From positions 4,514-68,513 of IMG/VR virus record IMGVR_UViG_3300045988_059857: a stretch of 64,000 nucleotides of DNA. The stretch is one strand, 5' to 3'. Under the pieces are notes generated by a model, which saw only the letters and a program-made list of their open reading frames with translations, did no database searches and was not told the DNA's origin. Made by a program: the position numbers and the translations under genes. Of the stretch, positions 19,061-57,835 are shown one piece after another; position 1 is the first letter of the stretch, and each line of letters opens with the position of its first letter. The stretch comes from a virus.

Positions 19061-19103
19061 CAAAGTTAATAATACTAGCCGAAAATCATATTTTATCCGT
19101 TAA
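19061..19103 (-). promoter_or_regulatory. late-type composite promoter: TTAACGGATAAAA-N22-TAACTTTG
   Basis: On the minus strand the motif is at 19091-19103, the spacer is exactly 22 nt, and the -7 box is at 19061-19068. The ATG at 19030 lies 30 nt downstream. Confidence 0.7.
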
Positions 19104-19126
19104 TACTCGTGCTTCTGATTCAATTA

Positions 19127-19169
19127 TTAACGGATAAAACTCGCATATAAATAATAATTAGTAACTTTG
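19127..19169 (+). promoter_or_regulatory. late-type composite promoter: TTAACGGATAAAA-N22-TAACTTTG
   Basis: The motif is at 19127-19139, the spacer is 22 nt, and the box is at 19162-19169. It forms a perfect 15-bp inverted repeat with 19091-19105. Confidence 0.7.
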
Positions 19170-19192
19170 CGGCATTAATAGACAGAAAAAAT

Positions 19193-19501
19193 ATGGCAAC
19201 AGAAAGAAATTCTAGAGGTCAGTTCGAGAAAGGACGAGCAAAGACTGGAGGTAAACAGAAGGGATATGAATCTCCTATCAAGAAGGAGTTTCGTGAACTC
19301 TGTGCCGATTTTTCCAGAGAGGCCTGGGATGATTTTATGGAAGCTTGGTATAAGTGCGAGCCTAAAGACAAGGTATCAACTTTCATCAAAATACTGGAGT
19401 TTAATTGCCCTAAGCTACAGACCGTCACTCTTGACGATAAGCGTGAGGTTCACAATGCGCTTACCGAGAAGTTAAGACAGATGTCAGAAGAGGAAGGATG
19501 A
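19193..19501 (+). CDS. small basic protein, possible DNA-binding / small-terminase-like protein (uncertain)
   Basis: ORF of 102 aa. The N-terminus, NSRGQFEKGRAKTGGKQKG, resembles the basic Gly-rich N-termini of some phage DNA-binding proteins. It is bracketed by its own late promoter and a terminator. Confidence 0.6.
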   Translation: MATERNSRGQFEKGRAKTGGKQKGYESPIKKEFRELCADFSREAWDDFMEAWYKCEPKDKVSTFIKILEFNCPKLQTVTLDDKREVHNALTEKLRQMSEEEG

Positions 19502-19583
19502 TTCTTTTTCGTTTAAATAGTACGATTGTTTTTTCATAGGTTTTAGGTTTAGTGGTTTTAAGATTGTAAGTTAGGATAAGAGT

Positions 19584-19609
19584 AAGGGGAATGCGTGAGC
19601 ACTCCCCTT
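19584..19609 (+). terminator. hairpin with GTGA tetraloop between convergent genes
   Basis: Sequence aagggga-a-tgc-gtga-gca-c-tcccctt, that is 7 bp plus 3 bp with a 1x1 internal loop, followed by cttgttt. Confidence 0.5.
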
Positions 19610-19657
19610 CTTGTTTCCAATTCTTTCCAGTTGTTTCCAAATTGGAAAGATTCACTA

Positions 19658-19936: not shown

Positions 19937-19938
19937 AG

Positions 19939-20304: not shown

Positions 20305-20328
20305 AATCTTAAATTTAAATTAATATAT

Positions 20329-20709: not shown

Positions 20710-20712
20710 AAG

Positions 20713-21578: not shown

Positions 21579-21585
21579 TTGACGA

Positions 21586-22013: not shown

Positions 22014-22056
22014 AAAGATAGATATACATTACCTATACATCAGATACGTGTTAGTT

Positions 22057-22077: not shown

Positions 22078-22104
22078 AAACTTGCGAGTAACAAAAAAAA
22101 TGCT

Positions 22105-27249: not shown

Positions 27250-27327
27250 GCGCAAGTAACTCAGTTGGTAGAGTATGAAGGTTCATCCCCTTCGAGGTCG
27301 TGGGTTCGAGTCCCACCTTGCGCCCCA
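27250..27327 (+). tRNA. tRNA with anticodon CAT (Met or Ile2), encoded CCA, atypical 6-bp anticodon stem
   Basis: Hand-folded cloverleaf:
- Acceptor stem gcgcaag/cttgcgc.
- D arm actc-agttggta-gagt.
- Anticodon stem gaagg/ccttc plus an extra U76.G94 pair, with loop ttCATcc.
- Variable loop aggtc.
- T arm gtggg-ttcgagt-cccac.
- Discriminator C, then CCA.
Position 37 is C, which is unusual. Confidence 0.7.
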
Positions 27328-31848: not shown

Positions 31849-32381
31849 CAGATGAAATCAAACAAGCCATCCAGCTTCTAGAAGAGAATGGCTACAAGGT
31901 AACCGCTCCACCAAAGCAAGTCAAAGACGAATATACCTTTGAACGAGCATGGAACCTTTACGAAAAGAAGGTTGGCTGCAAAGCCAAACTCGAAAAGAAG
32001 TGGAACTCTATGAGCCAGAAAGACCGCAAGGCAGCTATAGAGTATATTCCTCTCTATGTAATATCCCAACCCGACAAGCAGTACAGAAAGAACTTCCAAA
32101 CCTTCCTTAACCAGCGAGGATGGGAAGACGAACTTATCGGAGCAACACCACCGCCAGCAGCCATAAATGAAAAGCCTTCTGAAATGAGTCAGCTCATCGC
32201 TAGAACAAAAGCCGAATTGCAGAATCTTACAGAAGAAGCACAGGACAATAAACTTCGCAAGCGAATATGCGGAATGATTGAAGTCCTAAAGAACGACCCA
32301 CAAAGTTCATGTAGAATCCCATTGGAGATATATCGTGACAACGGAACAATGGAACATTTGGGCATCCAGTGGAATCCGTAA
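31845..32381 (+). CDS. hypothetical protein
   Basis: ORF of 178 aa whose start overlaps the upstream stop (ATGA). Confidence 0.7.
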   Translation: MTDEIKQAIQLLEENGYKVTAPPKQVKDEYTFERAWNLYEKKVGCKAKLEKKWNSMSQKDRKAAIEYIPLYVISQPDKQYRKNFQTFLNQRGWEDELIGATPPPAAINEKPSEMSQLIARTKAELQNLTEEAQDNKLRKRICGMIEVLKNDPQSSCRIPLEIYRDNGTMEHLGIQWNP

Positions 32382-32404
32382 CATCTACGAAACCGTTTAC
32401 CACA

Positions 32405-33163
32405 ATGATACAAATTAGTAAGTACAACAAGCAGCATCCCCTCAGAGTCTTTGAAGCATTCGCTGGGTATGGCAGCCAGAGCCTAGCCTTCAAATACCTC
32501 AAAGAAAAGCATCCTGAGTTCGACTTCAAGGTAGTGGGCTACTCCGAGATTGAACCTTCCGCCATCCAAGCCTATAGACTTCTTCATGGCAGAGAAATCC
32601 CAAACTACGGAAACATCGCCCTTCTTGATTGGAATGAGGTTCCCGACTTCGATTTCATCAGTTGGTCTTCTCCTTGCCAAGACTTTTCAAACGCAGGACT
32701 TCGCAAGGGAGCAGAGGAAGGTAGCGGCACACGTTCTTCTCTTATTTTCCAAGAAAGGAGAATGTTGGAAGCCAAGCATCCTAAATATGTGATGCTCGAA
32801 AACGTGAAAGGTCTTCTATCAAAGTCAATGAGAAAGTACTTCTTCCAATATCTGAAAGACCTCGACTACTTCGGTTACACCTCCTTCTACAAGGTTCTGA
32901 ATGCCAAAGATTACGGAATCCCTCAAAATCGTGAGCGCATCTTTGTCATTTCCATCCTACGCACAGAAGACGAACCGAACCCTGAGTATCACTTCCCTTC
33001 GCCTATCAAGTTAGAAACTACGGTTGAGGACATCTTAGAAGACGATGTATCTCCCGAATATTTCATGTCTCAGCCACTCCTAGAAAAGTATCTCTGTAAA
33101 GCAGACATCAATGAATCAATCGAAAAACTCTACCCCGAAGATTTCAATACCGAAAACGGCTGA
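32405..33163 (+). CDS. C5-cytosine DNA methyltransferase, N-terminal part (motifs I-VIII)
   Basis: Motifs seen are FEAFAGYGS (I), SSPCQDFSNAG (IV), LENVKGL (VI) and QNRERIF (VIII). The ORF ends at a TGA inside the variable region. Confidence 0.85.
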   Translation: MIQISKYNKQHPLRVFEAFAGYGSQSLAFKYLKEKHPEFDFKVVGYSEIEPSAIQAYRLLHGREIPNYGNIALLDWNEVPDFDFISWSSPCQDFSNAGLRKGAEEGSGTRSSLIFQERRMLEAKHPKYVMLENVKGLLSKSMRKYFFQYLKDLDYFGYTSFYKVLNAKDYGIPQNRERIFVISILRTEDEPNPEYHFPSPIKLETTVEDILEDDVSPEYFMSQPLLEKYLCKADINESIEKLYPEDFNTENG

Positions 33164-33433
33164 TGGCTGCTCTGTTGCAGTCACCTCCAATTTTTCTATG
33201 ACCAGCGTAATGAATATGCTAGATACTGGTCATTATCCTAAGGGTGGAGTCTTAATCATCAAGAAATTATAATGTGCGACAAAATTATAAAGCTGGCAAA
33301 CCTCCAAACCAAAGGCAGAATAGAGCAGCAGACCAGAGTCTACTCCACCAAGGGAATCTCTCCTACTCTCAATTCAGCCATGGGTCACGGAGGTAACTGC
33401 ATCCCACTATTCTTAATCGTAAAGGAGATATGA
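33111..33433 (+). pseudogene. two 53-codon ORFs carrying TRD-like segments of the fragmented C5-MTase
   Basis: 33111-33272 (frame +1 relative to the N-terminal part) encodes ...DGCSVAVTSNFS...GGVLIIKKL. 33272-33433 encodes KLANLQTKGRIEQQTRVYSTKGISPTLNSAMGHGGN. The junctions are TAATG and ATGA overlaps. Confidence 0.5.
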
Positions 33434-33882
33434 TAACTGGAGGAAAGAGAATGAAATCCCTGCTCCTATCAGGGAAGGTGAAGCCTGATATGGGGGGGCA
33501 AGTCTTAGACTTATATAATCAGCAAGTATATCAAGGCATCGCCCCTACCATGCTAACCACAATAGATTCATCATCAATGACATTCGTAACAACCATGAGT
33601 AAAGAAATCATTCACACTGCTCCCAACGGAAAGAAATACTCCATCCAAATCAGGAAGTACACTCCAAGAGATTGTTTCCGACTGATGGGAGTCCACGAAG
33701 CTGACATAGACAAACTCCTGAGCAAGGAGAAGACTGGTCAACTTATCATCTGCAAGAGCAAACTCTATGCCCTCGCAGGAAACTCAATAGTAACCAACTG
33801 CCTGACCGCCATGTTCGAGGAACTGATATTCCCTTCTGGGAATCACTACCATGACAAGACTGGTCAGCTATCCCTCTTCTAA
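33430..33882 (+). CDS. C5-cytosine DNA methyltransferase, C-terminal part (second TRD-like segment, motifs IX-X)
   Basis: Segments seen are VYQGIAPTMLTT, RKYTPRDCFRLMGV (IX) and LAGNSIVTNCL (X). A G7 tract lies at 33492-33498. Confidence 0.75.
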   Translation: MITGGKRMKSLLLSGKVKPDMGGQVLDLYNQQVYQGIAPTMLTTIDSSSMTFVTTMSKEIIHTAPNGKKYSIQIRKYTPRDCFRLMGVHEADIDKLLSKEKTGQLIICKSKLYALAGNSIVTNCLTAMFEELIFPSGNHYHDKTGQLSLF

Positions 33883-40349: not shown

Positions 40350-40646
40350 ATGAATACAAAGAAAATCTCAATTATTCAGCGTATCAAGGAAAAATTCCTT
40401 GGCAAGCAGTTTTTTATTGCAGTTATCGCTAACAAGGGAACTAGTTCCTACTTCGTCAACTCCACCATCTACCGCTCAGAGAAGGAGGTGAAGGCTTACA
40501 AGAAGTACATCACCACAGATGAGCGTATGAAACAGAGCTTCGATTTCGTAGGCTATTATGGTTTCCGCTCCAAGTTCGACTTCCGTATTCCTCTTAGCGG
40601 AAAGCCAGTATCAGTAGAAGAGGCAAAGAAACTGGCAGAGAAGTAG
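40350..40646 (+). CDS. hypothetical protein
   Basis: ORF of 98 aa. Confidence 0.6.
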   Translation: MNTKKISIIQRIKEKFLGKQFFIAVIANKGTSSYFVNSTIYRSEKEVKAYKKYITTDERMKQSFDFVGYYGFRSKFDFRIPLSGKPVSVEEAKKLAEK

Positions 40647-40647: not shown

Positions 40648-40923
40648 ATGGCTAAGATTAAAGACCTCACTGGGCAAAGGTTTGGCAGACTTGTTGTCTG
40701 CCGCCGTGCCCCTTCTGAAAAGGGAGCAAGAAACGGAGTATATTGGATATGCAAGTGTGATTGTGGCAGAGGAAAGAAAATCCTCAGTTCAGCCCTGCTC
40801 TCAGGATTCACACGCTCTTGCGGTTGTCTCCGTAGCGAGAATGCAAAGAGAACCGTCCGCCTGATGCAAGCCGTCAACAGGAAAAGACGTGAATCATTAA
40901 CAGATAAAGTAAGTATTACATAA
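40648..40923 (+). CDS. Zn-ribbon protein of the widespread LTGQRFGRL...CxCxCG...SCGC type
   Basis: The sequence is LTGQRFGRLVVCRRAP...YWICKCDCGRGKKILSSALLSGFTRSCGC. Confidence 0.6.
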   Translation: MAKIKDLTGQRFGRLVVCRRAPSEKGARNGVYWICKCDCGRGKKILSSALLSGFTRSCGCLRSENAKRTVRLMQAVNRKRRESLTDKVSIT

Positions 40924-40943
40924 ATTCATATTATATTTGCAAA

Positions 40944-41387: not shown

Positions 41388-43954
41388 TATTTCAAGGCTT
41401 GACACACTCACCATCCGACTATAATTGTCAGGATGGTGAGTTGGCAACCTGCCTCAACCTCATCAACGAGGATGGGGCACTCCACCCTATTCACCAGCCA
41501 GTGGTAGCTGAGCCGAACATCACGCTGGATGCAGGAGACACCATTGAACTGGTGCATAAGGTAATACACGATGAAGCGAGTCACTCCCACTACATCATCC
41601 GTAAATCAGATGATACTTGGTACTGGATGGAAAAAGGTGGAGACGGAACCAAGAACCCTATCGACTTGAACGGATTCCACGTTAATGCCGTCACAGCAGT
41701 AGGCAATATAGTTAATTTTGTTGGAGAAATATCTATCAAATACTTATATTGGATTGACGATAATTATCAGCTATTTGATAGAGATAACTTTAACTATGGA
41801 ATCAAAATCGGTTTTAAAGAATTTGATTATCAAGGTGGTTCAGCAGAAATCTCGCTAGGTGATGAATTTTGGGACTATGTTACTTATGAAAGCAGTTCTT
41901 CTGGTAGAAAGATAACTGGAATGAATGTAAACCAAGTCTCAAAAGTTTTCAACATGTTTGACGCTGTAATTAATAAGACTTTGTCCGACAAAGGAAAACA
42001 ATGGCAAAAGTATTTTGTGTTTGGAGTAGCAGCCATCAGATTATACGATGGAACTTACTACAGCATTTCCAATATTTTTAAACTTGACTGGAATAGTGCA
42101 ACTTTAGCTTCTGTTAGTGTTGACCCTTATAACAAGAGATTTTGGTCGATTGGACCAGCAATAGCAACTTGGACTATTAGCGCAAACATAGATAACCTTG
42201 ATAAAATATCAAATCTTATACAAGGCATTGATATTTTTTTAAGCAAAGCCGAATCATTCGTTAATTTAGAATCAGCAGCAGCCAAATACGTTGTACCTGA
42301 ACTAAATGATAAAGACCAAGGTGAAATGTTTTTCACAATGATGTCAGGAAAGGAAGCAGCAAATGCTATAGATTCCCTATCATTCTATCATTCACTATTT
42401 ATCAGTAAAGACGAAATTGGCAAAGAACTTCAACTCAAAAGAGTTGAGGGAACGGAAGAGTCTTTATCTTTGGCTAACCTATACCGTTCTGATTTAGGAG
42501 GTAAATGTGCGATTACATACAATAATAGACTTCATGTGGGGAATGTAAAAGAAGGATATAATGTTGATTTGATAAGTAATATCACTCCAGCATTATCAAA
42601 CTTATCAAACGATGCACAATTAAATACAGAAGGAATAGTTAGAGTGAAAGCATCAAACAAAGAATTTTGGTGCAAGGTTGATGATTTAGGTGCAAGACTA
42701 TATTACTTTGTATGTGTACCAATCTTAAATGTATCTGAAATCACATTCTATAAAAAGACTGGAACTTCTGTGTTTGAGAAATCTACGGTAAACTTGCATT
42801 CTTCCGAAACTACAGCATTCTCTTTTTACGTAGAAGGAGAAGGAAAGGAAAACGTACCGCAATTTGCTTTACCATGGGAAACCTCATCAGAAGAGGAATG
42901 GAACAATATTGTAAGCAAGTACGAAAACTATAAAACAAACACAAATGCACTTCCATATTCTTCTGTTGTGAAAGTAAGCGAAGCTGAGAATCCTCTAATC
43001 TTCCCTGCAAAGAATAGTGTTCAGGTTGGTTCTTCTATCATAAATACACTTGCCGCTAACACTAGACCAATAAGCGAAGGTCAATTTGGTGATGCTCCTC
43101 TATACGCTTTTACCGATGAAGGTGTATGGGTATTGATGCTTGGAGAAGAAGGAACCTATATTGCCCGACAGCCAGCCAATAGAGATATTTGCTCCAACCC
43201 GAAGGGTATCTTGCAGATTGATGATGCCGTTCTATTCCCTACAGAACGAGGAATCATGATGCAGAGAGGACGAGAATCTGAGTGCATTACCGATGTATTG
43301 GATGATTATCCTTTCTATTTTCCCTCTATTTACTCACATTCAACAAAGGATAAGACCTATCCGAACAAACTCCTTGCACTAGGTAAAATTCCTGAGTCTG
43401 ATGTAAAGTATGTCCATTTCCGTAAGTATATCGAAGAAGCAGATATGATTTACGACTATTATGATAGTCGTATCATCGTCTTTAACCCGAACTATACTTA
43501 TGCTTACGTTTACTCTTTGAAAAGCAAGATGTGGGGAGCCATGCACAATGTCTTCAACAAGCGAGTAAATATATATCCTGAGTCATACGCTACAGACAAA
43601 GCAGGAAACATACTTGATGTGTACGTAAAGGAACCTATAGATAATGTTCCATTCTTCCTTTGCAGCCGACCTTTAACGCTTGGACAAGATGCTTATAAGA
43701 CCATGTTTGATTGTATCACAAGAGGATATTTCAGAATCATTCAGGAAGGAAAGTGTGGAACGGTTCTATTTGGAAGTAATGATTTATCTAATTGGTATTA
43801 CGTTGGTTCGTCTACAAATATGTATCTCAGAAATCTTGTAGGTTCCCCATACAAATATTTCAGGGTCGTGTTCATGGGTAACCTTGCCCCAAACGAATCT
43901 ATCAGCGCACTATCTACAGAGTTCCAATCAAGATTACAAAATAAACTCAGATAA
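41366..43954 (+). CDS. large protein of unknown function (862 aa), possibly virion-associated
   Basis: A long, clean ORF starting at the first ATG (41366). I recognise no enzymatic motif. The composition looks beta-rich. Confidence 0.8.
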   Translation: MAARQDVIFQGLTHSPSDYNCQDGELATCLNLINEDGALHPIHQPVVAEPNITLDAGDTIELVHKVIHDEASHSHYIIRKSDDTWYWMEKGGDGTKNPIDLNGFHVNAVTAVGNIVNFVGEISIKYLYWIDDNYQLFDRDNFNYGIKIGFKEFDYQGGSAEISLGDEFWDYVTYESSSSGRKITGMNVNQVSKVFNMFDAVINKTLSDKGKQWQKYFVFGVAAIRLYDGTYYSISNIFKLDWNSATLASVSVDPYNKRFWSIGPAIATWTISANIDNLDKISNLIQGIDIFLSKAESFVNLESAAAKYVVPELNDKDQGEMFFTMMSGKEAANAIDSLSFYHSLFISKDEIGKELQLKRVEGTEESLSLANLYRSDLGGKCAITYNNRLHVGNVKEGYNVDLISNITPALSNLSNDAQLNTEGIVRVKASNKEFWCKVDDLGARLYYFVCVPILNVSEITFYKKTGTSVFEKSTVNLHSSETTAFSFYVEGEGKENVPQFALPWETSSEEEWNNIVSKYENYKTNTNALPYSSVVKVSEAENPLIFPAKNSVQVGSSIINTLAANTRPISEGQFGDAPLYAFTDEGVWVLMLGEEGTYIARQPANRDICSNPKGILQIDDAVLFPTERGIMMQRGRESECITDVLDDYPFYFPSIYSHSTKDKTYPNKLLALGKIPESDVKYVHFRKYIEEADMIYDYYDSRIIVFNPNYTYAYVYSLKSKMWGAMHNVFNKRVNIYPESYATDKAGNILDVYVKEPIDNVPFFLCSRPLTLGQDAYKTMFDCITRGYFRIIQEGKCGTVLFGSNDLSNWYYVGSSTNMYLRNLVGSPYKYFRVVFMGNLAPNESISALSTEFQSRLQNKLR

Positions 43955-43956: not shown

Positions 43957-44853
43957 ATGGCAGAATATACATTATTAGCTTTTGATTCACAGCGTGCACG
44001 AAATGGAGCATCCGTAGGCTATATGGATGCCAACAACAAAGTGCATATAGCTACAGAAATAAAGTTCTATGAAATAAGAAGGTCAGACTACTTCGGCTAC
44101 ATCATGTTAGACGGAAAGCAATATGAGTTTTTAGCAAATGGCTATTTTTATGTAAATGGAGATAAGCAGTTGCTAAAGATAGTAGAATCCTCTATCACAA
44201 AGACAACTGGAACGAAACTTGTCAGAGAAACTTCTTCCGATGGAACATCAAACGCTCGCCCATTCCCTAGAAATGGAATAGCAACCACATCAGAAACAGG
44301 TGGAACAGAGGAAAGTGACAAAACAGAGGAAATCTTCTCAATCGCTACCCTACAGCCTAGAGAAGAAGTAGCAGCAAGTTGCTTGCAGTCTATGCTCCAG
44401 CGGTATACGAATCCGCTCAATATAGACAACACCAAGATTAAGCAACTTGTAAGCAAGTCATTCTTGTTTGCTCAGGAGTTCATCAATCAGGCAGTTCTCT
44501 ATCGTGAGAAGGAGACAACATCGGCAACCGTTGAGAGCAACAAGTACGCATCGGTTGATTCCGATTCTCTCAGCAGCGACACCGATAAACTGCTCTACAA
44601 CATATCTACAGCCATCACGAACTTTATTTCTCAGGATAAGAACCAGTATGCAGACCAGCAGAAGAACGGATTGAAGCTGGCTGCTACAGACGTTAACGTC
44701 AAGACTCTACCTGAGTCTGTCAAGACGGTTGTCAGTGGAAACATTGATGCTGCTGTCACTGGCTCAGTCAGTGCATCGGTAAGCGGCTCTGTTAATGCTA
44801 CTGTCAGCGGTTCCGTTACAACCAAGCAGGAATCCACATCTAGTGGAACATAA
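43957..44853 (+). CDS. hypothetical protein with Ser/Gly/Val-repeat C-terminus
   Basis: ORF of 298 aa with the repeat SGSVSASVSGSVNATVSGSV. Confidence 0.75.
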   Translation: MAEYTLLAFDSQRARNGASVGYMDANNKVHIATEIKFYEIRRSDYFGYIMLDGKQYEFLANGYFYVNGDKQLLKIVESSITKTTGTKLVRETSSDGTSNARPFPRNGIATTSETGGTEESDKTEEIFSIATLQPREEVAASCLQSMLQRYTNPLNIDNTKIKQLVSKSFLFAQEFINQAVLYREKETTSATVESNKYASVDSDSLSSDTDKLLYNISTAITNFISQDKNQYADQQKNGLKLAATDVNVKTLPESVKTVVSGNIDAAVTGSVSASVSGSVNATVSGSVTTKQESTSSGT

Positions 44854-46921: not shown

Positions 46922-47470
46922 CTACACTTTGAGTGCTACCAATGCCCTCTTCAAGTACTTACGTCTGTTCTCCAAACCATAAGTACCACCATTGATTGTC
47001 TTTGTTATAGCCAGAAAGCTATCACTATCAGCCAGTTTATTCAAGCCGTGTTTCCACCACCACCACATAGCACTCTTTGTAGCATATCTAGGTTGCTCCA
47101 GCAACTCAGGATGCCCCATAATATCCTCAGTAACTTCCTTGCTGTTCTGCAAAGCCTGATAGTTCGCCCTGCCAGTAATCTGAATCAAGCCCCTGCCACG
47201 GTACTTGTAGCCGTCACCATCTTTCAGGTTGCCGAGCATGTTCTTCAACTTGCCCACATCATACTTGTGGAAATAGTTCTTGTTGCCGAGTTCCTTGGTA
47301 TATCTCAGTTCACCGCTCTCATGCGCTATCTGAGCCAAGAAGTGCGCCATGCGCTTAGGAGTGTCTATTTGATACGTATCTGCATAACCATTGATGTAAG
47401 GCAGAAAAGCATCCACTTTAGCCTTCGCATTCGGCATAATCGCCAAAATCTGTTCTCTTGTTACCTTCAT
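46922..47470 (-). CDS. glycoside hydrolase family 19-type endolysin
   Basis: The motif is FLAQIAHESGELRYTKELGN...GDGYKYRGRGLIQITGRANY. Confidence 0.85.
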   Translation of the reverse strand: MKVTREQILAIMPNAKAKVDAFLPYINGYADTYQIDTPKRMAHFLAQIAHESGELRYTKELGNKNYFHKYDVGKLKNMLGNLKDGDGYKYRGRGLIQITGRANYQALQNSKEVTEDIMGHPELLEQPRYATKSAMWWWWKHGLNKLADSDSFLAITKTINGGTYGLENRRKYLKRALVALKV

Positions 47471-47771: not shown

Positions 47772-47814
47772 CAAAGATAAGAAATGATTCCCATATAGTC
47801 ACTTTATCCGTTAA
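47772..47814 (-). promoter_or_regulatory. late-type composite promoter: TTAACGGATAAAG-N22-TATCTTTG
   Basis: On the minus strand the motif is at 47802-47814, the spacer is 22 nt, and the box is at 47772-47779. The holin ATG lies 36 nt downstream. Confidence 0.7.
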
Positions 47815-48289
47815 TAGTATGCCATATTTTGCTTGTTGGATGCAAGCAATCAGGGTCTTGCAGATATTCTATAGCCATCATAACCACCATTTCCTTCAAT
47901 TCGTCTGCATCCTTGCTATATCGCTCCAGCAGCAGATGATGGTCGCTTCTCAGCAGATTCATGGTCACTGCCAAGTCATGTATGGTGTAATCAGAAATAT
48001 CATCCTGATGCTGGTCAAAGGCTTCCCTTATCTCCTCATCCGAGAAGAAAGGAGCCATGTGCTTAGTTCCGTCAGCATCCTCATACCACATCTTGTTGAT
48101 AGCATCATCGGCAAAGTGCTTATCGAAATGCTCTTCGCTCAATACACCATACACCATCGCACAAAGATGATGTACCTCCACATCGCTCAACTTATATGAG
48201 AGATACTTACCCATAGCCTTGGCTATACTCAACATCTGTTCAGGACTCATTTCCTGCTGATACTTATCAACAAATTCTACAAAATCCAT
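47804..48289 (-). CDS. hypothetical acidic protein
   Basis: I take the ATG at 48287-48289 (MDFVEFVDKYQQ) as the start. The track start would lie inside the promoter box. Confidence 0.65.
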   Translation of the reverse strand: MDFVEFVDKYQQEMSPEQMLSIAKAMGKYLSYKLSDVEVHHLCAMVYGVLSEEHFDKHFADDAINKMWYEDADGTKHMAPFFSDEEIREAFDQHQDDISDYTIHDLAVTMNLLRSDHHLLLERYSKDADELKEMVVMMAIEYLQDPDCLHPTSKIWHTING

Positions 48290-48319
48290 AATATATAAAA
48301 TTAAAAGTTTATGATGCTG

Positions 48320-48327
48320 CAAAGATA
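48320..48327 (-). promoter_or_regulatory. -7 box TATCTTTG
   Basis: The reverse complement of caaagata. It lies 30 nt upstream of the ATG at 48289. Confidence 0.4.
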
Positions 48328-48681: not shown

Positions 48682-50718
48682 TTATGCTGCTAGCGGTGGA
48701 GTCTGCCCGTCAGGATTCACTCCTTGACCACTCATCATCTGCTGCAACATCGCCTGAGCCTTAGGATTGCTTTGTGATGCCTGAGCCACTTGTGCCTGCA
48801 ACTGAGGAGAGAACCCTTGCGGAACCTCACCATTCTCCATAGCTTGCTGATTGGATGCCACGGATTGCAGCAACTCCTCACCAAAAGGAAAATCGCCCAC
48901 CTGTAACAACTGCTCCAGCGTGATAGCTTGGGCTTGCCACAAGGTCATAAGGAACTCATTTGCCATCTGCCTATAAACAGGTGTAGCCGTACTTTCCGTG
49001 ATATTGATGTCAAACTCAACGTCTCGTATCTTCTTTGGGTCATAGCGAACTATCTGCCCTGCCCTTCCCACAATATTGAAGTTGCGAGCCACATCATAGA
49101 ACTGCTGCATATTCTTCACGGTCTTGTATGCACCATCAATGATAAACTGGCTGAAACTCTCCAAAATATCAAGCAGCGACATGGTGGCATTCTGTGTCTG
49201 CTGGGCATAGAGCGAACCACTCGTTCCTGATACTCCTTGCTTTCCTTGCAGCGCACCATTCACTCCCGAAATATCCTCGAAGAACTTCAACTGATAGCTG
49301 AGCAAATCACCGATACCGATGTTCGTAGAGTTGTTGGCTACTTGCTGAGGAACCTGACCACTCTTGTTTGGCTTGTACCTTACCACACCATTGAACCTAC
49401 TCCACTCATCGCAGAAATCATCCCAACTCATATCGTCAGGCAAGCAATCCTCAGGACAAAGCAGTACACCCTTGGCACTGGCACGCATAATGAAGTCATA
49501 CATCGTGATAAGTCGGTTCACGTATCTCTGTTGGTCAATCACATCTTCCACAAAGCTGTGAATCTCACCATCTATAAACGGATAGAACTTAAAGCAGTAA
49601 GGGTGTTCTCCATGAGCATAAGGAGTTTCACCTTCTCTAAGTATATCACCAAAAGGAGAAAGGTAATAGAAATGCCAGTAATCATCCATAAACCACTCGG
49701 TATCAATCAAAGGAATATCCTCTTCCATCATGCCAGCAGCAATACCTCGCCTGATTCTGTCTTTGTTCTCTGCGTCTACAATATCAGCCTTATCCTCAAT
49801 ATCGATTTTAAAATCATCTCCGTTATTGTAGTCGTGGCATCGGTATCTAGGCTTACTCTCCTTGCGCCAAACCTCAATCACTCGGCAGAGTGAAGGATTG
49901 GAAGGATTCATAAAGTCAATGGTCTTAGGGTCGAACTCACCAAATCGCTGAGTGCAGTCAGCTATTACGAAATCTCGGTTAGCTGCCAGTCTGTATATTT
50001 CCTTCAACTTCCGAGCCTCAGCAGGAGACTTGGCAAACTCTCGCAGCACGTTGCCGATGGTGATGTCATGCACCTCACCCAAACAACTCACGTCCCAACC
50101 ACGGAAATCCCTCATATTGTTGTCTATGAAGAAATTGTTCGGGTTCACGTAGTCCGTCCAGCAATCCAACCTACCTCTTCGCCATCCATACTTTTTCTTA
50201 TAGATAGCAGCACCGCTTATCAGGAACTCTTCCATGGTACGTGCATCCAACTCCGTCTCTCGGTTCAGTTGTCGGTTACACTGTAGCACCACGCTCATGG
50301 TCTCGCCATATCGCTTTTCATCCTTGTCTCTCGCATTGCAGGTAGGTTCCTTGCTCTGTGAACGATACACACCCAGCACATTCTTCACCAATCTACGGAT
50401 AAGGTTATTCTTCAATGGCTCGCTACCCTGCTCACGGATATAGTCTTCCTCCTTCACACGCTTGGTAAAACCGCATTTGTTCTTGAACTCAATGGTATCG
50501 CCCCACTGGTCTCCGTAGCAGTATCGCTTGTTTCTTTCCCTTCGCTTTCGGAAGTTGTCCATGTTGTTGTAATATCGCTGAGCCTCCTGTAAGATAGCAT
50601 AGGCACGTTCATAAGGTCGGTCAAAGCGTTTCAGAGATTCCTTCACGCTATCCAGTTCGTCCTTATCAATCACCTTGCTCAACGATAGCAATTTAGCTTT
50701 TTCTTTCTTCTTTGCCAT
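48682..50718 (-). CDS. portal protein
   Basis: ORF of 678 aa. The N-terminal region RNKRYCYGDQWGD resembles the portal Y-x-G-x-QW signature. It is located in the head module. Confidence 0.65.
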   Translation of the reverse strand: MAKKKEKAKLLSLSKVIDKDELDSVKESLKRFDRPYERAYAILQEAQRYYNNMDNFRKRRERNKRYCYGDQWGDTIEFKNKCGFTKRVKEEDYIREQGSEPLKNNLIRRLVKNVLGVYRSQSKEPTCNARDKDEKRYGETMSVVLQCNRQLNRETELDARTMEEFLISGAAIYKKKYGWRRGRLDCWTDYVNPNNFFIDNNMRDFRGWDVSCLGEVHDITIGNVLREFAKSPAEARKLKEIYRLAANRDFVIADCTQRFGEFDPKTIDFMNPSNPSLCRVIEVWRKESKPRYRCHDYNNGDDFKIDIEDKADIVDAENKDRIRRGIAAGMMEEDIPLIDTEWFMDDYWHFYYLSPFGDILREGETPYAHGEHPYCFKFYPFIDGEIHSFVEDVIDQQRYVNRLITMYDFIMRASAKGVLLCPEDCLPDDMSWDDFCDEWSRFNGVVRYKPNKSGQVPQQVANNSTNIGIGDLLSYQLKFFEDISGVNGALQGKQGVSGTSGSLYAQQTQNATMSLLDILESFSQFIIDGAYKTVKNMQQFYDVARNFNIVGRAGQIVRYDPKKIRDVEFDINITESTATPVYRQMANEFLMTLWQAQAITLEQLLQVGDFPFGEELLQSVASNQQAMENGEVPQGFSPQLQAQVAQASQSNPKAQAMLQQMMSGQGVNPDGQTPPLAA

Positions 50719-51880: not shown

Positions 51881-53419
51881 TTAGGCAGCAGCCTTCACCT
51901 CAGAATCGTCTGCCTGAGAAACTTCCTCAGGAACCTTAGCAAGACGCATACGAGCATGAGCCTTAGGGTACTTCAAGTACAGACAAGCTACCTCCTGAAT
52001 AACTACTGCATCGGTGTTACGGATGCCAGCCTTCTTCAAGTCGAGTACGTTTCGTGTCCAAGACAAGTGTACTCGCTTAACCAAGAACTCAGGGTCAAGA
52101 GCAAAGCCGCAGTCACTCATACCGAAGAGGTCAAACAACTCAGAGTGAATCATCAGTACCTCACCGAAGTCTGTCTCCCAACTCTTGAACTTCAATTCCC
52201 AAACCTCAACTGTGTCCTTCAAGCGGAACTTTTCAGATTTAATCTTACTGAATGCACTCACGAAGTCAGAACCAGCGATAATCACCTTGCGCTTGTTGCC
52301 GATACCTGTACCAACAAACAAATCCTTGGAAATGTCAACCAACTCCAAGTCATTAATCACTCGCTCATTCTTGTTGTAGCCAGCCTTAATATCGTCAGCA
52401 GTAGCAACATGTCCTACCTCAATATCCTTACCAGCCATCCACCAGATGCCCTTGGTAAACCACTGGGCAGAACCATTCTTAATCTCGTGGTTAATACAAG
52501 CCATATCACCGAAGAGATAAGTACCCTCCATGGCAAGACGCATATCATAGATACTATCCTCTTCAAGGTCTGAGAAATCCCAATCCACTCGCTTGGCAGC
52601 AATCTTGTCGAAGGTACTCTGCTCTACCTGAATCATAAAGTTTTGGCAATACTGGGTCTCAGCAGCAGGAAGGTTATTGAATCTACCTGTCTGAACATCC
52701 ATTTCACCGCAACTCTTTGCCATACGGATAAGTTTCTGACCCTTCTTCAAGGCAGGAATACCGATTGCCTGCTTATTAATCAAATTACCATTAATGGCAT
52801 ATACAATCGGATAGCCCTCTGTGTCCTTACCGCACACACAAAGCTCCAAATCAGGAGTTGGAGCTTCAGTAATGGTTGAATAAGCTACATTTTTATAGTT
52901 GGTAATTGCCTTCACGCCTACCACTCGGATAGTATCATCCAACGTAAACATTGTAGGGTCTTCCACCTTCAATACCATAGATGTGCCCGTACTTTCGTTT
53001 GTTGCTTCCTTTAAGGTAGTCTTGATAGGACGTGTTCCGATACTCCAATACTCAACTACAAACGAGTCGGCAGACTTGGTTGTAGCATAGCGTGAAATCT
53101 GGTCAACTGGAGTAGCCATCGGACGAATCTTGGTAATCTTCTTATCAATATCGTTCAGATAATACTCCGTGCCGTTCTCGTTATAATGCTCACGACCCTT
53201 AGTTTCTGTCTTGATACCATCATCCTGACGGGCAGCACCGCCATTGCCAGCTTCACCAGCAGCAGGAGCACCACCTGCCTCAGCTGCATGACCACTCTCG
53301 CTAGTACCGCCATCAGGAAGATTCGCCTCAGCCATGAGAACCTGACCATTCACTCCAAAAATAACTGCCATCACCATCAGAAAGATGGAAAGCAGCCGAT
53401 TAAATGTACTTTTCTTCAT
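51881..53419 (-). CDS. major capsid protein candidate
   Basis: ORF of 512 aa immediately downstream of the scaffold-like gene, with a strong late promoter upstream. The call rests on size and position. The N-terminus is unusually hydrophobic. Confidence 0.6.
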   Translation of the reverse strand: MKKSTFNRLLSIFLMVMAVIFGVNGQVLMAEANLPDGGTSESGHAAEAGGAPAAGEAGNGGAARQDDGIKTETKGREHYNENGTEYYLNDIDKKITKIRPMATPVDQISRYATTKSADSFVVEYWSIGTRPIKTTLKEATNESTGTSMVLKVEDPTMFTLDDTIRVVGVKAITNYKNVAYSTITEAPTPDLELCVCGKDTEGYPIVYAINGNLINKQAIGIPALKKGQKLIRMAKSCGEMDVQTGRFNNLPAAETQYCQNFMIQVEQSTFDKIAAKRVDWDFSDLEEDSIYDMRLAMEGTYLFGDMACINHEIKNGSAQWFTKGIWWMAGKDIEVGHVATADDIKAGYNKNERVINDLELVDISKDLFVGTGIGNKRKVIIAGSDFVSAFSKIKSEKFRLKDTVEVWELKFKSWETDFGEVLMIHSELFDLFGMSDCGFALDPEFLVKRVHLSWTRNVLDLKKAGIRNTDAVVIQEVACLYLKYPKAHARMRLAKVPEEVSQADDSEVKAAA

Positions 53420-53475: not shown

Positions 53476-54291
53476 TTATCGAATGCGTGTTCTCTTCTCC
53501 ATTCCACGCTCCCAGATGTTACCCCTACGTGATGCTCTTCCAAGCGCACCAAATTCAGGCTGGTTGTCACCCTGCTTAACCTCTGCATTGGCAGAATCAA
53601 GGTCAGCAGTACCATCGCCCTTCTTTCTCAGTTCAAGGTTCTTCATGTGCTTACTGTTCTTGCCACGCACCTCGCCTTCATGTGCTGCATCAGCCACATC
53701 GGTATCATGGTTCTTAGCCTTGATGAAAGCAGTAATCATATCCTCTGTGAAGATACCTTTCACCACATTGTTCATCGTAAGAAAGCACTGGTCGATTGCT
53801 TCATTCACCGCTTCCTCACCATACTTCTCTTCCAACTTGTCGAATACTTCATAGCTGGCTGGCATATTCTTGTCATACTCCTCTTGCAGTTTCTTGCCGT
53901 TGGCAGCATTCTGCAAGAACTCCGACTGAGCCGATGCAATCTCATCCGCATTGTCGGGGTCAGAGTAGTAATCAATGGCATCCTCGCCATGTGTACGAAT
54001 CAACTCGGCATAAGGACTTTTACCTTCCTTCATCGCTTTCAGGAAGGTAGCCGCCTCAGGGTCACTACCCAACCAGTCACCCATTGCCTTCTCATTATCC
54101 TTGTAACCCTGCAAAGCCTTCTGGTCGGCATCATAATCATCGTTGATTGCACCATACATAGCTTCATCATCCGCATACTCCGTGTCGGGGTGGCGGGTCT
54201 TCAAACGCTCCAAAGCCAAGTCTCTCTTGGTCTTCGTTTCCTGCTGCTTGGCAGCACCAGCATTCTGTTCAATATTTGTATTATCTGGCAT
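53476..54291 (-). CDS. scaffolding-like acidic protein
   Basis: I take the ATG at 54289-54291 (MPDNTNIEQ) as the start. The protein is acidic and helical-looking, with a basic C-terminal tail GNIWERGMEKRTRIR. It lies directly upstream of the capsid candidate. Confidence 0.55.
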   Translation of the reverse strand: MPDNTNIEQNAGAAKQQETKTKRDLALERLKTRHPDTEYADDEAMYGAINDDYDADQKALQGYKDNEKAMGDWLGSDPEAATFLKAMKEGKSPYAELIRTHGEDAIDYYSDPDNADEIASAQSEFLQNAANGKKLQEEYDKNMPASYEVFDKLEEKYGEEAVNEAIDQCFLTMNNVVKGIFTEDMITAFIKAKNHDTDVADAAHEGEVRGKNSKHMKNLELRKKGDGTADLDSANAEVKQGDNQPEFGALGRASRRGNIWERGMEKRTRIR

Positions 54292-54322: not shown

Positions 54323-54365
54323 CAAAATTAATGCTTTTTCGGCTAATTTCTACTTTATCCGTTAA
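54323..54365 (-). promoter_or_regulatory. late-type composite promoter: TTAACGGATAAAG-N22-TAATTTTG
   Basis: On the minus strand the motif is at 54353-54365, the spacer is 22 nt, and the box is at 54323-54330. The ATG at 54291 lies 31 nt downstream. Confidence 0.7.
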
Positions 54366-54404: not shown

Positions 54405-54412
54405 TATATTTG
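54405..54412 (+). promoter_or_regulatory. -7 box TATATTTG for the terminase operon (no 13-nt late element)
   Basis: Matches TAnnTTTG and lies 11 nt upstream of the ATG at 54424. Confidence 0.4.
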
Positions 54413-54423: not shown

Positions 54424-54879
54424 ATGAAATATAAGGATTCACGGTGTGATTTTAAAGAAGAACGTGATGCTGATATATTGAGGGCTTATCGTGAGATACT
54501 TACGACAGGAGACAATATAACACTCTCAGATATTGAGGAAAAGCTATCCCAGTATCCGAGCAGTAGATTTTGGGTATCAGAAGACCGTGCTTATATAGTC
54601 ATATTAGACTTATTGTTGGGAAAATCCATTGATTATATGATACCAACCCGAAGGGCAATGTATCAGGAGATTTTCAGAAGATTCAAGAATTACAGAAGGC
54701 AATATCCACACTTGTCCAAGATGGATATTATCAAACGTGTATGCTACGAGCCAGCACCCAGCTTCTATCTTACTCCGCAAACCATGCACGTTATACTTTA
54801 TAGGGTGAGAAAGGAGGAGAAGAAAAGATGCAACGAGGAGCGAAAGAGAAGATTGCGCTTTATGCAGGGTACATTATAA
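54424..54879 (+). CDS. hypothetical protein in small-terminase position
   Basis: ORF of 151 aa from the first ATG. It is basic at the C-terminus and lies upstream of TerL. The assignment is positional only. Confidence 0.65.
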   Translation: MKYKDSRCDFKEERDADILRAYREILTTGDNITLSDIEEKLSQYPSSRFWVSEDRAYIVILDLLLGKSIDYMIPTRRAMYQEIFRRFKNYRRQYPHLSKMDIIKRVCYEPAPSFYLTPQTMHVILYRVRKEEKKRCNEERKRRLRFMQGTL

Positions 54880-55307
54880 TAATGTGTATCACTTTTCTAG
54901 GCTATGATGGTATGGGCTTGTCGGATGGCTGCACTCTTTGGCAGCGCATCAGTTATCCGTTCTTTCACCAGAACGTCTTCCATGCCGCCATCAACCTTTA
55001 TGTTTTCCATCAGTGTTATCGAGCCATACCTTGTGGCATCGGTCACATGGTCGCATTCTATCTTATCGCTATCAGCTATCCATCCCAATCCTCCGTACCA
55101 ATCATTGGTCTCAGCGGTTTTATCTATGCTTATATGGGGTTCATCGCCCCTTACGTCAATAAAAAGGTAAGATACAATACCATCATCTTACTCTATATCA
55201 GTATCGGAATCTTCATTCCCTGCATGGCTGTTGGAGTCCACATCTACTGCTATGTACTAGGTTTGTTGTGGGGTTATCTAAATGCACCGCTATGCCAAGA
55301 CAAGTAA
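54828..55307 (+). CDS. compact rhomboid-family intramembrane serine protease
   Basis: Three motifs are seen: WQRISYPFFHQNVFHAAINL (H-x4-H-x3-N), IIGLSGFIYAYMG (GxSG) and AVGVHIYCYVLGLLWG (catalytic His helix). There are about 6 hydrophobic helices in 159 aa. The start is uncertain, either 54828 or 54882. Confidence 0.7.
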   Translation: MQRGAKEKIALYAGYIIIMCITFLGYDGMGLSDGCTLWQRISYPFFHQNVFHAAINLYVFHQCYRAIPCGIGHMVAFYLIAISYPSQSSVPIIGLSGFIYAYMGFIAPYVNKKVRYNTIILLYISIGIFIPCMAVGVHIYCYVLGLLWGYLNAPLCQDK

Positions 55308-57445
55308 CCGCCACCAAGCCAGTAACCGATGCACTAGCCAAGCACTACAAATCCATCCTTACGGAGAACGAGAAACGCATCAAGGAAATCAACACACCTT
55401 TCAATCCTGTCAAGGGTGAAGGTTGTGGAGATAAGCGATTCCTGCTCTTCCTGCCCGATTACCCGATTCAGAAACAGTATCTTCCAGTTTCAATGAAGAA
55501 GATTCCGCTCGTCAAAATGCTCATCGAGTTCGGTAACTGCAAGGCGGTAATCGAGGAACTGCACAAGGATATAGATGAGCCGTACAACGAGGAGGAGGAA
55601 ATGGAACAACTGGTGGAGCAGTTTACTCGCATCAGAATGAAACATGACCCATTCTTCTTCTTTGCCGTATTCATCTATATCAAGCCGAAAGGTGGAGGTC
55701 TTCCCTTCCGCTTTGTGCTCAGAAGACCACAGCGCAGACTGCTCAGGTGGCTGGAGGAGCGAAGAAAGAAGAATCGCCCTATCCGTCTCATCCTGCTGAA
55801 AGCCCGACAATGGGGAGGTTCTACGGTCATTCAGATGTATATGCTCTGGCTGCAACTCATGTGGCAGAAGGGTCTCAACTCACTCATCGTGGCTCAGGTC
55901 AAGGACACAGCAGAGACCATCCGAGGAATGTTTGATGAAGCGTTGAAGGAATTTCCAACCAAGTTCCTGCACGAAATGGGAGAAGCATATACCGAGAACG
56001 AGCCTAAGTTTGTAGGATTCGGAACATCAGGTAACGTAAAGAAGGTTCCTCAGCGATTCTGTAAAATCAAGGTGGGTTCTATGCAGAAACCTACTTCTGC
56101 CAATGGTGAAGACTACAACCTTATCCATTGTTCTGAGGTGGGATTGTGGGAGAAGACAGAAGGCAAGTCTCCTGAGGAGGTTGTACAGAATGCAACCAAT
56201 GGTGTGCTCTACAGACCATACACCATGATTGTATATGAATCAACCGCCAATGGTACTGGTAATTTCTTTCATCAGGAGTGGCTGGCAGCAGAAGCAGGAG
56301 AATCGGTATTTGAGCCGTTCTTTGTTCCTTGGTTCGAGATTTACGACCTATACCATCTTGACTTCGAGAGTAAGAAACAGAAAGAGGAGTTCGCAAAATG
56401 GTTATACGATAACCGAAACAACACCAACACGATGTCTAATCGTGAGGAGCCAGTTACCTATCTTTGGAAGTTGTGGCAGATGGGAGCACCTTTGGAAGCT
56501 ATCAACTGGTATATCACGGAGCGCAAAAAGTTCACTGACCATGGTGATATGGCTAGCGGATTCCCTTCTGACCCAGTAGAGGCCTTCAAGCACTCAGGAG
56601 CCAAGGTATTTGCAGAAGAGAAGGTTGACCAGTTCAAGAAAGGTTGCCGAGCACCTAAGTTCATCGGTGATGTTTACGGAGACGGATATAAGGGAAAGAA
56701 GTGCCTACAGAATGTTCGATTCACAGAAGACAAGACAGGGCAGTTGTGGATATGGAGCAAGCCAGAGTACTTTGACGATTGCAAGGTCACAAACCGCTAT
56801 CTAGTTGTCGTGGATATTGGCGGTAGAGGTAGTAAGGCAGACTGGTCTGTTATCTGTGTCTTCGACCGATATTGGATGATGGAAGGTGGTAAGCCATACG
56901 TGGTAGCCCAATGGTACGGACACATAGATATGGACTTGCTGGCATGGAAGGCAGCACAGATAGCCAAGTACTACGACAATGCCCTATTAGTGATTGAATC
57001 CAACACCTTGGAGACGAAAGACAAGGAGCACATCTTGGAAGGTGGTGACCAGTCTGAGTTCATCCTGAATCAAATAAAGGATGAGTACGATAATCTCTAT
57101 GCACGCAAACAGAGCGAAGCAGACATCAAGGAAGGTCTTCCACGCAAGTACGGATTCCATACCAATGTGGCAACCAAGCCAATGGTTATCTCTGTTTTGG
57201 TTCAGGTAGTCAGAGAGCATCTATACGTTGAGCGTGACCAACGATGCCTGAATGAGTTCCTGACCTACGAGCGTAAGAAGAATGGAGCATACGGAGCCAT
57301 TGACGGAAAGCACGATGATTTGCTCATGACCAGAGCAATCGGACTCCACATCTGTTTCAATGAAATGGAAATGCCTAAGATGATACAGAATCAGGCAAGA
57401 GTAATGAGAAGAAAGGTTTCTGTTTCGGCAGCAACCATCATATAG
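55292..57445 (+). CDS. terL: terminase large subunit
   Basis: The Walker A-like segment is LLKARQWGGSTV. The nuclease-like acidic motifs are VVVDIGGRGSKADWSVI and HDDLLMTRAIG. I use the first ATG, at 55292. Confidence 0.88.
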   Translation: MPRQVTATKPVTDALAKHYKSILTENEKRIKEINTPFNPVKGEGCGDKRFLLFLPDYPIQKQYLPVSMKKIPLVKMLIEFGNCKAVIEELHKDIDEPYNEEEEMEQLVEQFTRIRMKHDPFFFFAVFIYIKPKGGGLPFRFVLRRPQRRLLRWLEERRKKNRPIRLILLKARQWGGSTVIQMYMLWLQLMWQKGLNSLIVAQVKDTAETIRGMFDEALKEFPTKFLHEMGEAYTENEPKFVGFGTSGNVKKVPQRFCKIKVGSMQKPTSANGEDYNLIHCSEVGLWEKTEGKSPEEVVQNATNGVLYRPYTMIVYESTANGTGNFFHQEWLAAEAGESVFEPFFVPWFEIYDLYHLDFESKKQKEEFAKWLYDNRNNTNTMSNREEPVTYLWKLWQMGAPLEAINWYITERKKFTDHGDMASGFPSDPVEAFKHSGAKVFAEEKVDQFKKGCRAPKFIGDVYGDGYKGKKCLQNVRFTEDKTGQLWIWSKPEYFDDCKVTNRYLVVVDIGGRGSKADWSVICVFDRYWMMEGGKPYVVAQWYGHIDMDLLAWKAAQIAKYYDNALLVIESNTLETKDKEHILEGGDQSEFILNQIKDEYDNLYARKQSEADIKEGLPRKYGFHTNVATKPMVISVLVQVVREHLYVERDQRCLNEFLTYERKKNGAYGAIDGKHDDLLMTRAIGLHICFNEMEMPKMIQNQARVMRRKVSVSAATII

Positions 57446-57468
57446 TTTCAAATTAAATAATTACGATT

Positions 57469-57774
57469 ATGAAAGTAACAAAGATTTTCAAGCGCATCAA
57501 GTGCGAAATCATGTATCGCCAAGCTACGGCTAAGGCTGACCTCGCAGCAAAGAAGAACCACGGTGACATCTTCTATGTCCTTCCTACGCAGAAAGGCAAC
57601 TTGATGATTATGAACCGCTTCTATTTTGAGGCGTTCAAGAAGACAAAGTTGGTAGATAAAGACATGAAGGCTAGAGACCTCTTCCGTGATTGTGTCTATC
57701 ATACCAACTGCAAGAGCAAGAAGGGAAAACTCAGCAGAAAGCGCAAATTCCTACGCTGGAAAGGCTTAATCTAA
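57469..57774 (+). CDS. hypothetical basic protein
   Basis: ORF of 101 aa. Confidence 0.6.
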   Translation: MKVTKIFKRIKCEIMYRQATAKADLAAKKNHGDIFYVLPTQKGNLMIMNRFYFEAFKKTKLVDKDMKARDLFRDCVYHTNCKSKKGKLSRKRKFLRWKGLI

Positions 57775-57792
57775 AGTTTTTCAGTTCAAGTG

Positions 57793-57835
57793 TTAACGGA
57801 TAAAGGATAGGTAGAGAAAATTCTGCCTATCTTTG
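57793..57835 (+). promoter_or_regulatory. late-type composite promoter: TTAACGGATAAAG-N22-TATCTTTG
   Basis: The motif is at 57793-57805, the spacer is 22 nt, and the box is at 57828-57835. The ATG at 57865 lies 29 nt downstream. Confidence 0.7.

Follow-up and report, generated by a model that had tools for sequence, protein, structure and literature searches.

The late genes of a phage represented by 64,000 nucleotides (nt) of viral DNA (IMG/VR record IMGVR_UViG_3300045988_059857, positions 4,514 to 68,513; hereafter the window, meaning this stretch at its full length) appear to be served by promoters of a single design, in which an asymmetric element precedes the -7 box, TAnnTTTG, of Bacteroidota promoters by a fixed distance. 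From the comparisons that follow, we think it probable that this element stands in for the -33 contact of the host sigma-A polymerase and that a co-evolving, phage-encoded factor recognizes it. On balance, the element also seems to be what defines late promoters on their upstream side in a large family of temperate Bacteroidales podophages.

The Element Stands at a Fixed Distance from the -7 Box

The window holds five exact copies of the 13-mer TTAACGGATAAAR, against about 0.01 expected, and none of 100 shuffled sequences contained five or more; between every copy and its TAnnTTTG box there are precisely 22 nt. A first-pass annotation, made from the letters of the window alone, had described these five copies and their spacing, and both descriptions hold: exact copies lie between genes at the coordinates and on the strands it gave, they face the genes it named (whose identities were checked), and the distance to the box is exact in all five. 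It spoke, however, of five such promoters, and the number is six, since allowing one mismatch reveals a further site, also 22 nt from its box and upstream of another late-looking operon (P3 in Table 1).

The six copies are dispersed, one per late operon, and the orientation of each is always that of the operon downstream. They are intergenic, the sole overlap with a gene being that of the P3 site with the 3′ end of p91, and the single sites are asymmetric. The consensus of the element in the window is RTTAACGGATAAAR; counted as a 12-mer the element ends 23 nt before the -7 box, and the GATAA core of that 12-mer ends 24 nt before it. Near 19.1 kilobases (kb) the copies belonging to P1 and P2 form the perfect 15-bp inverted repeat that the annotation had noted (19091-19105 and 19125-19139), with a gap of 19 nt. 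All recognizable virion, ejection-protein, and lysis genes lie downstream of the six element promoters, the terminase operon excepted, and the repressor/cro region of the window has no copy of the element.

Element Promoters Lack the -33 TTG

The -7 box TAnnTTTG is present in all six element promoters, and these boxes are indistinguishable from those of the early promoters that have a normal -33. What differs is the region above the box. A TTG 17-21 nt upstream of it is found in none of the six element promoters and in four of six element-less intergenic promoters; among the 71 distinct spacers of element promoters in relatives, a single one has it. In the 21.59-kb, integrase, cro-like, and repressor promoters the TTG lies exactly 20 nt upstream of the box, which fits the -33/-7 consensus published for Bacteroides (PMC9330008). 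Two promoters have neither the TTG nor the element: that of the terminase operon (box at 54405-54412, plus strand) and that of a DUF7841 gene (47804-48292), with its box at 48320-48327 on the minus strand. The first-pass annotation was thus right that the integrase, cro-like, terminase-operon, and 21.59-kb promoters carry the -7 box and do not carry the element, and right that the 21.59-kb promoter has an ordinary -33; its proposal that the element replaces the -33 contact is borne out insofar as the distribution of the TTG can speak to it. If the box is taken as centered on -7, with the start some 4-7 nt after it, the element would span about -46 to -36, with its center near -41, over the -33 position.

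The Element and Its Spacing Are Conserved among Relatives

A search with the capsid protein found 488 relatives in IMG/VR, and an exact-pattern scan of the same database, itself conditioned on the motif, returned at least 136 instances (at least 97 of them distinct) in at least 116 stretches. All but four of the pattern matches listed lie upstream of orthologues of the corresponding window genes; orthologous instances number at least 41 for P2 and at least 19 for P6. The spacing can be examined free of motif conditioning in relatives fetched by protein, for which we used 80 capsid-anchored and 80 p147-anchored loci. In these 160 loci TAnnTTTG stands exactly 24 nt after GATAA in 62 of the 63 distinct copies of the 11-mer TTAACGGATAA, where the background frequency is 0.0004. 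When the P5 (scaffold-promoter) region of the 80 capsid-anchored loci is aligned, all 40 distinct sequences have TTAACGGATAA unchanged, and three clades differ in the 15 nt upstream of it and in the 12 nt with which the spacer begins. P3 is present in every one of the 80 p147-anchored loci as TTAACAGATAA, TCAACGGATAA, or TTAACGGATAA(T), always with GATAA followed by 24 nt; most of these relatives have the canonical TTAACGGATAA there, that is, the canonical G at the position of the window's mismatch.

Bacterial assemblies were likewise scanned for the exact pattern, a scan that is useful only for loci that also encode phage proteins and gives no measure of enrichment outside prophages; among the matches listed, single matches outside Bacteroidota amount, by our estimate, to about the number expected by chance. 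Distant prophages of Prevotella, Phocaeicola, and Porphyromonadaceae have the same element and spacing ahead of their orthologues of the scaffold, portal, ejection-protein, and other genes. The large terminases of these prophages are 45-60% and their capsids 22-65% identical to those of the window, and their spacers are unrelated, some of them GC-rich. The motif search in relatives that the annotation had proposed therefore finds element and spacing again at orthologous promoters, and the comparison supports the conclusion that both are under selection and have been conserved over large phage divergence.

Variants of the Element Follow Phage Lineages

By capsid, the closest cultured relatives are the Bacteroides phages BKO1-TP3 and BS-TP4 (60% identical) and BF1-TP2 (46%), all described in PMC12694917, which contains no promoter analysis. 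BKO1-TP3 has no copy of the canonical 12-mer. In its place, elements resembling GTAAAAAGATAA are found at the 24-nt offset in six promoters, most of which occupy orthologous positions; these include the divergent pair adjoining the giant gene, the counterparts of P1 (61033, minus strand) and P4 (23815, minus strand), and the counterpart of P3, in which GTAAAAAGTTAA, 24 nt, and TACTTTCG follow one another upstream of gp32. The GTAAAAAGATAA variant is stable across the BKO clade. Further portal-anchored lineages have variants of their own (GTTAATAGATAA, GTTAATAAATAA, TGAAATAAATAA, GTAAA[CT]GGATAA, ATAAACAGATAA, and GTAAAAAGTTAT), and the skeleton common to the whole family is G-T-W-A-A-N-R-R-W-T-A-W; sorted by central triplet, the classes are CGG, CAG, TGG, AAG, TAG, TAA, and TAC. 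Two promoters of one genome share a variant: the mean Hamming distance is 1.4 within genomes versus 3.28 between lineages (permutation p = 3e-5, over lineages partly related to one another).

The canonical class is found in assemblies of Segatella/Prevotella (Prevotellaceae), Phocaeicola, and Porphyromonadaceae, and the Bacteroides phages form another class. Because the canonical class crosses host families and the Bacteroides phages differ from it, the class of the element goes with the phage lineage more than with the host. Not every relative has the system: in BF1-TP2, no element recurs at a fixed offset in the range of 22-26 nt that was looked at.

Two observations on the cultured phages may be recorded here. 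The orthologous intergenic regions of BF1-TP2 contain CATAAC[GA]ATAAA motifs (39169, 61010, 61043, and 42166). These closely follow -7 boxes or are near start codons, instead of preceding a box by 24 nt, and possibly represent a relative of the element that occupies another position. In the terminase promoter of BKO1-TP3, the spacer contains the scaffold element in reverse complement, so that binding of a factor there could turn one promoter off and the other on.

Table 1. Positions of the six element promoters and of four genes considered as sources of the factor (window coordinates; aa, amino acids)
Feature	Positions	Strand	Element	-7 box	Genes served, or context
P1	19061..19103	-	TTAACGGATAAAA, 19091-19103	TAACTTTG, 19061-19068	Ejection-protein operon: 18356-19030, 17228-18352, giant open reading frame (ORF) 687-17198
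P2	19127..19169	+	19127-19139	TAACTTTG, 19162-19169	102-aa gene 19193-19501 (BF1-TP2 homologue annotated DUF5681); divergent partner of P1
P3	40897..40939	+	TTAACAGATAAAG, 40897-40909 (one mismatch)	TATATTTG, 40932-40939	40944-41387 (p147), 41384-43954, 43957-44853
P4	47772..47814	-	47802-47814	TATCTTTG, 47772-47779	Lysis and downstream operon, 47735 to 44955
P5	54323..54365	-	54353-54365	TAATTTTG, 54323-54330	Scaffold-like 53476-54291, major capsid 51881-53419, two small genes, portal 48682-50718
P6	57793..57835	+	57793-57805	TATCTTTG, 57828-57835	57865-58779, 58781-59941 (tail fiber; tail-fiber PHROG matches), 59962-63489
p98 (candidate)	40350..40646	+			Penultimate gene of early rightward operon; p91 next, then P3
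p152 (candidate)	54424..54879	+			First gene of terminase operon; promoter without element, divergent from P5
p101 (candidate)	57469..57774	+			Small basic protein; last terminase-operon gene, directly upstream of P6
p91 (weaker candidate)	40648..40923	+			91-aa zinc-ribbon protein; 3′ end/stop region encodes P3 element

Search for the Factor

Scans of about 60 window proteins and the product of the giant ORF against Pfam, NCBIfam, and PHROG found no sigma-70 region 2 or 4, MotA, AsiA, Mor/C, or Ogr domain, and Pfam and NCBIfam scans of the candidates found neither an AraC-type double helix-turn-helix (HTH) nor a CII homologue. Three genes of no assigned function remain when one asks for conservation in BKO1-TP3 and for transcription that does not depend on the element: p98, p152, and p101. 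The first-pass annotation had said that the factor could not be picked out in the window, and domain and fold searches have likewise left candidates only.

The p98 protein is 98-100% identical in amino acids in all 80 relatives, where the nucleotide identity is 90-98%, and 52 of its codons have synonymous variants versus 10 with non-synonymous ones; to judge from these counts, p98 is under unusually strong purifying selection. At the same position BKO1-TP3 has gp31, which by eye resembles a distant p98 homologue, and tblastn at 1e-3 gives no match between them. Its AlphaFold2 model is an alpha/beta fold (predicted local distance difference test [pLDDT] 79) for which Foldseek finds no match in the PDB. 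We regard p98 as a candidate for the trans factor and as nothing firmer.

The p152 protein is conserved in all lineages examined, including BKO1-TP3 (gp49) and BF1-TP2 (gp58). Its AlphaFold2 model (pLDDT 81) has two three-helix repeats, and the motifs PSxRFWVSExRA and APxFYLTPxS are conserved. It has no Pfam or NCBIfam match, Foldseek against PDB and BFVD gives none at E ≤ 0.001, and a profile search of PDB sequences gives none; p152 and p98 are the two proteins in which remote structural similarity was examined. As the determinant of specificity p152 is weakened by two comparisons. Lineage L368 has a BKO-like p152 yet the canonical element, and the putative recognition helices are nearly identical in L368 and L514, yet the central triplets of their elements are CGG and TAA. 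The protein may instead be the small terminase.

The p101 protein matches phrog_22658, a family whose function is unassigned. It has tblastn homologues in many portal-anchored lineages, BKO1-TP3 gp52 is similar to it by eye, and several lineages that have the element system gave no tblastn match. Finally, all 80 window-type relatives have p91, with identities of 50-100%, and so do lineages L481 and L483; it is weakened as a candidate because tblastn finds no counterpart in BKO1-TP3, a phage that possesses the promoter system. Its domain (GxRFGRL...CxCxCG...SCGC) is widespread, with 814 homologues, most of them 120-160 aa long and some with PF21817, and it also aligns with a stretch inside phrog_374, a family of HNH endonucleases.

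How the Element Might Work

With no -33 element, the six promoters would be expected to be used poorly by host sigma-A polymerase alone. We suspect that a phage protein made from early or middle transcripts would bind the asymmetric element in one orientation and supply the missing upstream contact, as a class-II-type activator touching alpha or region 4 of sigma; in an alternative mode, it would remodel or replace region 4 (sigma appropriation). Either way, the host sigma-A polymerase would still use the -7 box, and all six virion, ejection-protein, and lysis operons would be switched on together. We infer where transcription starts and when it occurs, that the element activates and does not repress, and both the origin of the factor in the phage and its identity. 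A reader encoded by the phage fits, because the variants are common to the promoters of one genome and the class is only loosely tied to host taxon. We also speculate, tentatively and as something well short of an even chance, that a small phage protein of a new kind (p98 or partners), without recognizable kin among known transcription factors, substitutes for or re-targets region 4 of the atypical primary sigma of Bacteroidota; it would be an independently evolved counterpart of T4 sigma appropriation, spread over hundreds of gut prophages, with its specificity re-tuned in each lineage through the central bases of the element.

The first-pass annotation had proposed a phage late activator or a sigma-like factor. 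On sequence and comparative evidence the activator is supported, by the lineage-specific variants and the loose tie to host, and the sigma-like factor is less likely, given that the host-type -7 box is kept and that no sigma-70-family domain was detected in the window proteins scanned. In its full form the latter proposal takes the element for the -35-type recognition sequence of an alternative sigma, encoded by the phage or recruited late from the host, whose -10 specificity matches the host -7 box. The strict asymmetry and a spacing that is invariant in nearly all distinct copies are what bipartite sigma recognition would produce, and Bacteroidota encode many sigma factors, as textbooks record. 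Yet the box downstream is the same as that in early promoters with a normal -33, promoters of the extracytoplasmic function (ECF) type use a different -10 (also textbook knowledge), and the element varies by phage lineage and not clearly by host family; these points, together with the lack of a sigma domain in the scans described above, make an alternative sigma rather unlikely. Recognition by a host transcription factor conserved in Bacteroidales, which the phages would exploit to time late expression (for example through a stress or growth-phase signal), strikes us as unlikely also. It would account for the identical 11-mer in prophages of several host families and agrees with the failure to identify a phage factor and with the lack of co-variation between p152 and the element. 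It accords poorly, however, with different classes inside one host family, where a Phocaeicola prophage is canonical and Bacteroides phages have GTAAAAAGATAA, and with at least eight variants among close relatives, each common to the promoters of one genome. Among the matches listed, moreover, every two-copy locus that was checked against the window proteins encoded phage structural genes, and single-copy matches outside Bacteroidota stood near the chance level given above.

An operator for a repressor that silences the virion and lysis operons in the lysogen or early in infection would explain the overlap of the element with the -33 region, since polymerase could be blocked by a protein bound there, and the inverted repeat formed by the two 19.1-kb copies would suit it. 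We consider such a repressor improbable, as the single sites are asymmetric, no copy lies at the repressor/cro switch region, the promoters are already without a -33 element, and occlusion would not call for a distance to the -7 box kept to the single base in such divergent phages. A repeat with no part in transcription, serving packaging, recombination, replication, or as a methylation target and lying near promoters incidentally, is very improbable indeed, even though the phage encodes several DNA methyltransferases: its orientation always matches the downstream operon, its distance to TAnnTTTG is fixed, and the six dispersed copies fall one per late operon, none inside a gene save at the p91 3′ end.

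Several points nonetheless weigh against a phage-encoded reader that takes the place of the -33 contact. None of the candidates has a recognizable domain or fold match, so that no DNA- or polymerase-binding protein can be assigned. Two element-less promoters are also without a -33, and a missing -33 by itself is not proof of dependence on an activator. The placement near -41 and the late timing derive from the -33/-7 consensus (PMC9330008) and from gene content. Host labels come mostly from metagenome bins, the lineages of the within-genome comparison are partly related, and BF1-TP2 shows a relative doing without a recurring element at the fixed offset.

Comparison with Known Systems

As in the middle promoters of T4, which have the MotA box and are served by AsiA and MotA, an asymmetric phage-specific element stands in for the -35 or -33 of the host at a fixed distance from an unchanged host -10 or -7 box, and it recurs at many dispersed promoters of one temporal class, the class here being presumed. 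In T4 phage proteins read the element and the host primary sigma stays in use, as textbooks describe; the same would be true here. The sequences are unrelated, however, and the element has no MotA box consensus (TGCTT core); the MotA box is centered near -30, whereas the element would lie near -41; no MotA or AsiA homologue was found with Pfam, NCBIfam, and PHROGs or, for p152 and p98 only, by fold comparison; and the phage described here is temperate and has a Bacteroidota host with a -7 TAnnTTTG and an unusual sigma-A.

The class II promoters of MarA, SoxS, and Rob offer another likeness, in that an asymmetric site lies over the -35 region (a position that here would follow from the distance to the -7 box) with strict orientation and spacing, and these activators are monomers with two HTH motifs, which recalls the two three-helix repeats predicted in p152. 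Unlike that system, the phage has yielded no AraC-family domain, p152 does not co-vary with the element, and the element is about 12 bp long compared with 20 bp.

In Mu (Mor/C), P2 and P4 (Ogr and Delta), and lambda (CII), small phage proteins from earlier transcripts turn on several promoters that have no good -35. The sites of Mor/C and CII lie over or beside the -35 region. The position of p98 and p91 at the end of the early operon, adjoining the first late promoter, is that held by Q or ogr. Here again there are differences: Mor/C and Ogr sites are dyads (that of Ogr at -55) and CII sites are TTGC-N6-TTGC repeats, whereas the single sites of the element are asymmetric; no Mor, Ogr, or CII homologue was detected in the scans described above; and the zinc-ribbon protein p91 is not found in BKO1-TP3.

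The early promoters of the phage agree in both parts with the canonical Bacteroides sigma-A promoter (-33 TTTG, -7 TAnnTTTG). The element promoters share with it the form of the -7 box, but in them the -33 TTG is missing and the element is in its place. ECF sigma promoters, with an AAC-containing -35 and a CGT-type -10, differ in that the downstream element here is the sigma-A -7 box, and no sigma domain was found in the window.

Late promoters that have no -35 and depend on a phage factor are classical. What is new is the element itself, the way it is placed with respect to the Bacteroidota -7 box, its distribution across phage lineages, the series of specificities, and the apparent absence of a known activator family; the literature that we searched contains no paper with the element sequence in a relevant context or with a description of these promoters. 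Bacteroides, Prevotella, and Segatella are among the most abundant bacteria of the human gut, and to our knowledge almost nothing is known of temporal gene expression in their temperate phages. As far as the searchable literature shows, this would be the first late-promoter architecture defined for a widespread family of such phages. It supplies a rule for annotating late operons (12-mer, 24 nt, TAnnTTTG) and a natural series of specificity variants that can be used for finding the factor, and it could be a source of tightly phage-dependent promoters for engineering Bacteroidota. Since relatives such as BKO1-TP3 are in culture (PMC12694917), the question of how host sigma-A polymerase may be redirected in Bacteroidota becomes directly testable.

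The Phage, Its Genes, and Its Host

The window is a temperate podophage-like genome, in which an integrase, a large terminase, a tail-fiber protein, and a Rha/Ant protein were identified. A megablast of 44-64 kb found no near-identical phage record in INPHARED. A near relative resides in the complete chromosome of Segatella copri HDE04 (NZ_CP152346, 1472001-1480000; locus L392), with a capsid 88% and a large terminase 93% identical, and further window-type prophages occur in Prevotella sp. UMGS1787 (L351 and L386); the large terminases of the window-type prophages are 93-97% identical. Given these window-type prophages in Segatella and Prevotella genomes, the host is probably Segatella/Prevotella (Segatella copri) and not Bacteroides, the genus whose sigma-A promoters the first-pass annotation had cited.

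The giant ORF on the minus strand encodes a polyvalent protein of 5503 aa with two ART-PolyVal ADP-ribosyltransferase domains, a C5 DNA methyltransferase, a PBECR5 nuclease, LPD3, and LPD38. The gene next to it encodes a T7 gp14-family internal virion protein (PF24072), and for that reason the giant product is probably an ejected anti-defense protein. Among the genes of the other late operons, the endolysin (46922-47470) matches phrog_181 at 4e-62, the portal protein matches phrog_156 and is P22-type, and capsid homologues are annotated DUF5309 or DUF2951. The second gene of the P3 operon (41384-43954) encodes 856 aa from its ATG; the longest ORF, which begins at a TTG at 41294, encodes 886 aa.

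At P3 only 4 nt separate the -7 box from the ATG of p147 (window 40932-40946, TATATTTGCAAAATG), and the promoter of BKO1-TP3 gp32 has an identical 4-nt gap (16232-16246, TACTTTCGTACTATG). With so short a gap the first gene of the P3 operon would be translated from an mRNA with little or no leader. A perfect 12-bp palindrome, ATTATTAATAAT, is found at 19045-19056 and 57842-57853, 4-6 nt 3′ of the -7 boxes of P1 and P6, and P4 carries a version with two mismatches. There are only two exact copies, and two matches were reached in 8 of 100 shuffles; the palindrome could be a second operator or just an AT-rich leader.

The early region also contains a tRNA-Met (CAT) gene at 27250-27327 on the plus strand. 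One C5 cytosine methyltransferase appears to be split between plus-strand ORFs at 32369-33163 and 33430-33882, which are separated by 266 nt; the first corresponds to positions 2-227 of the Pfam DNA_methylase domain and the second to positions 256-322, and an intron, an insertion, or a disrupted gene is a possible cause.

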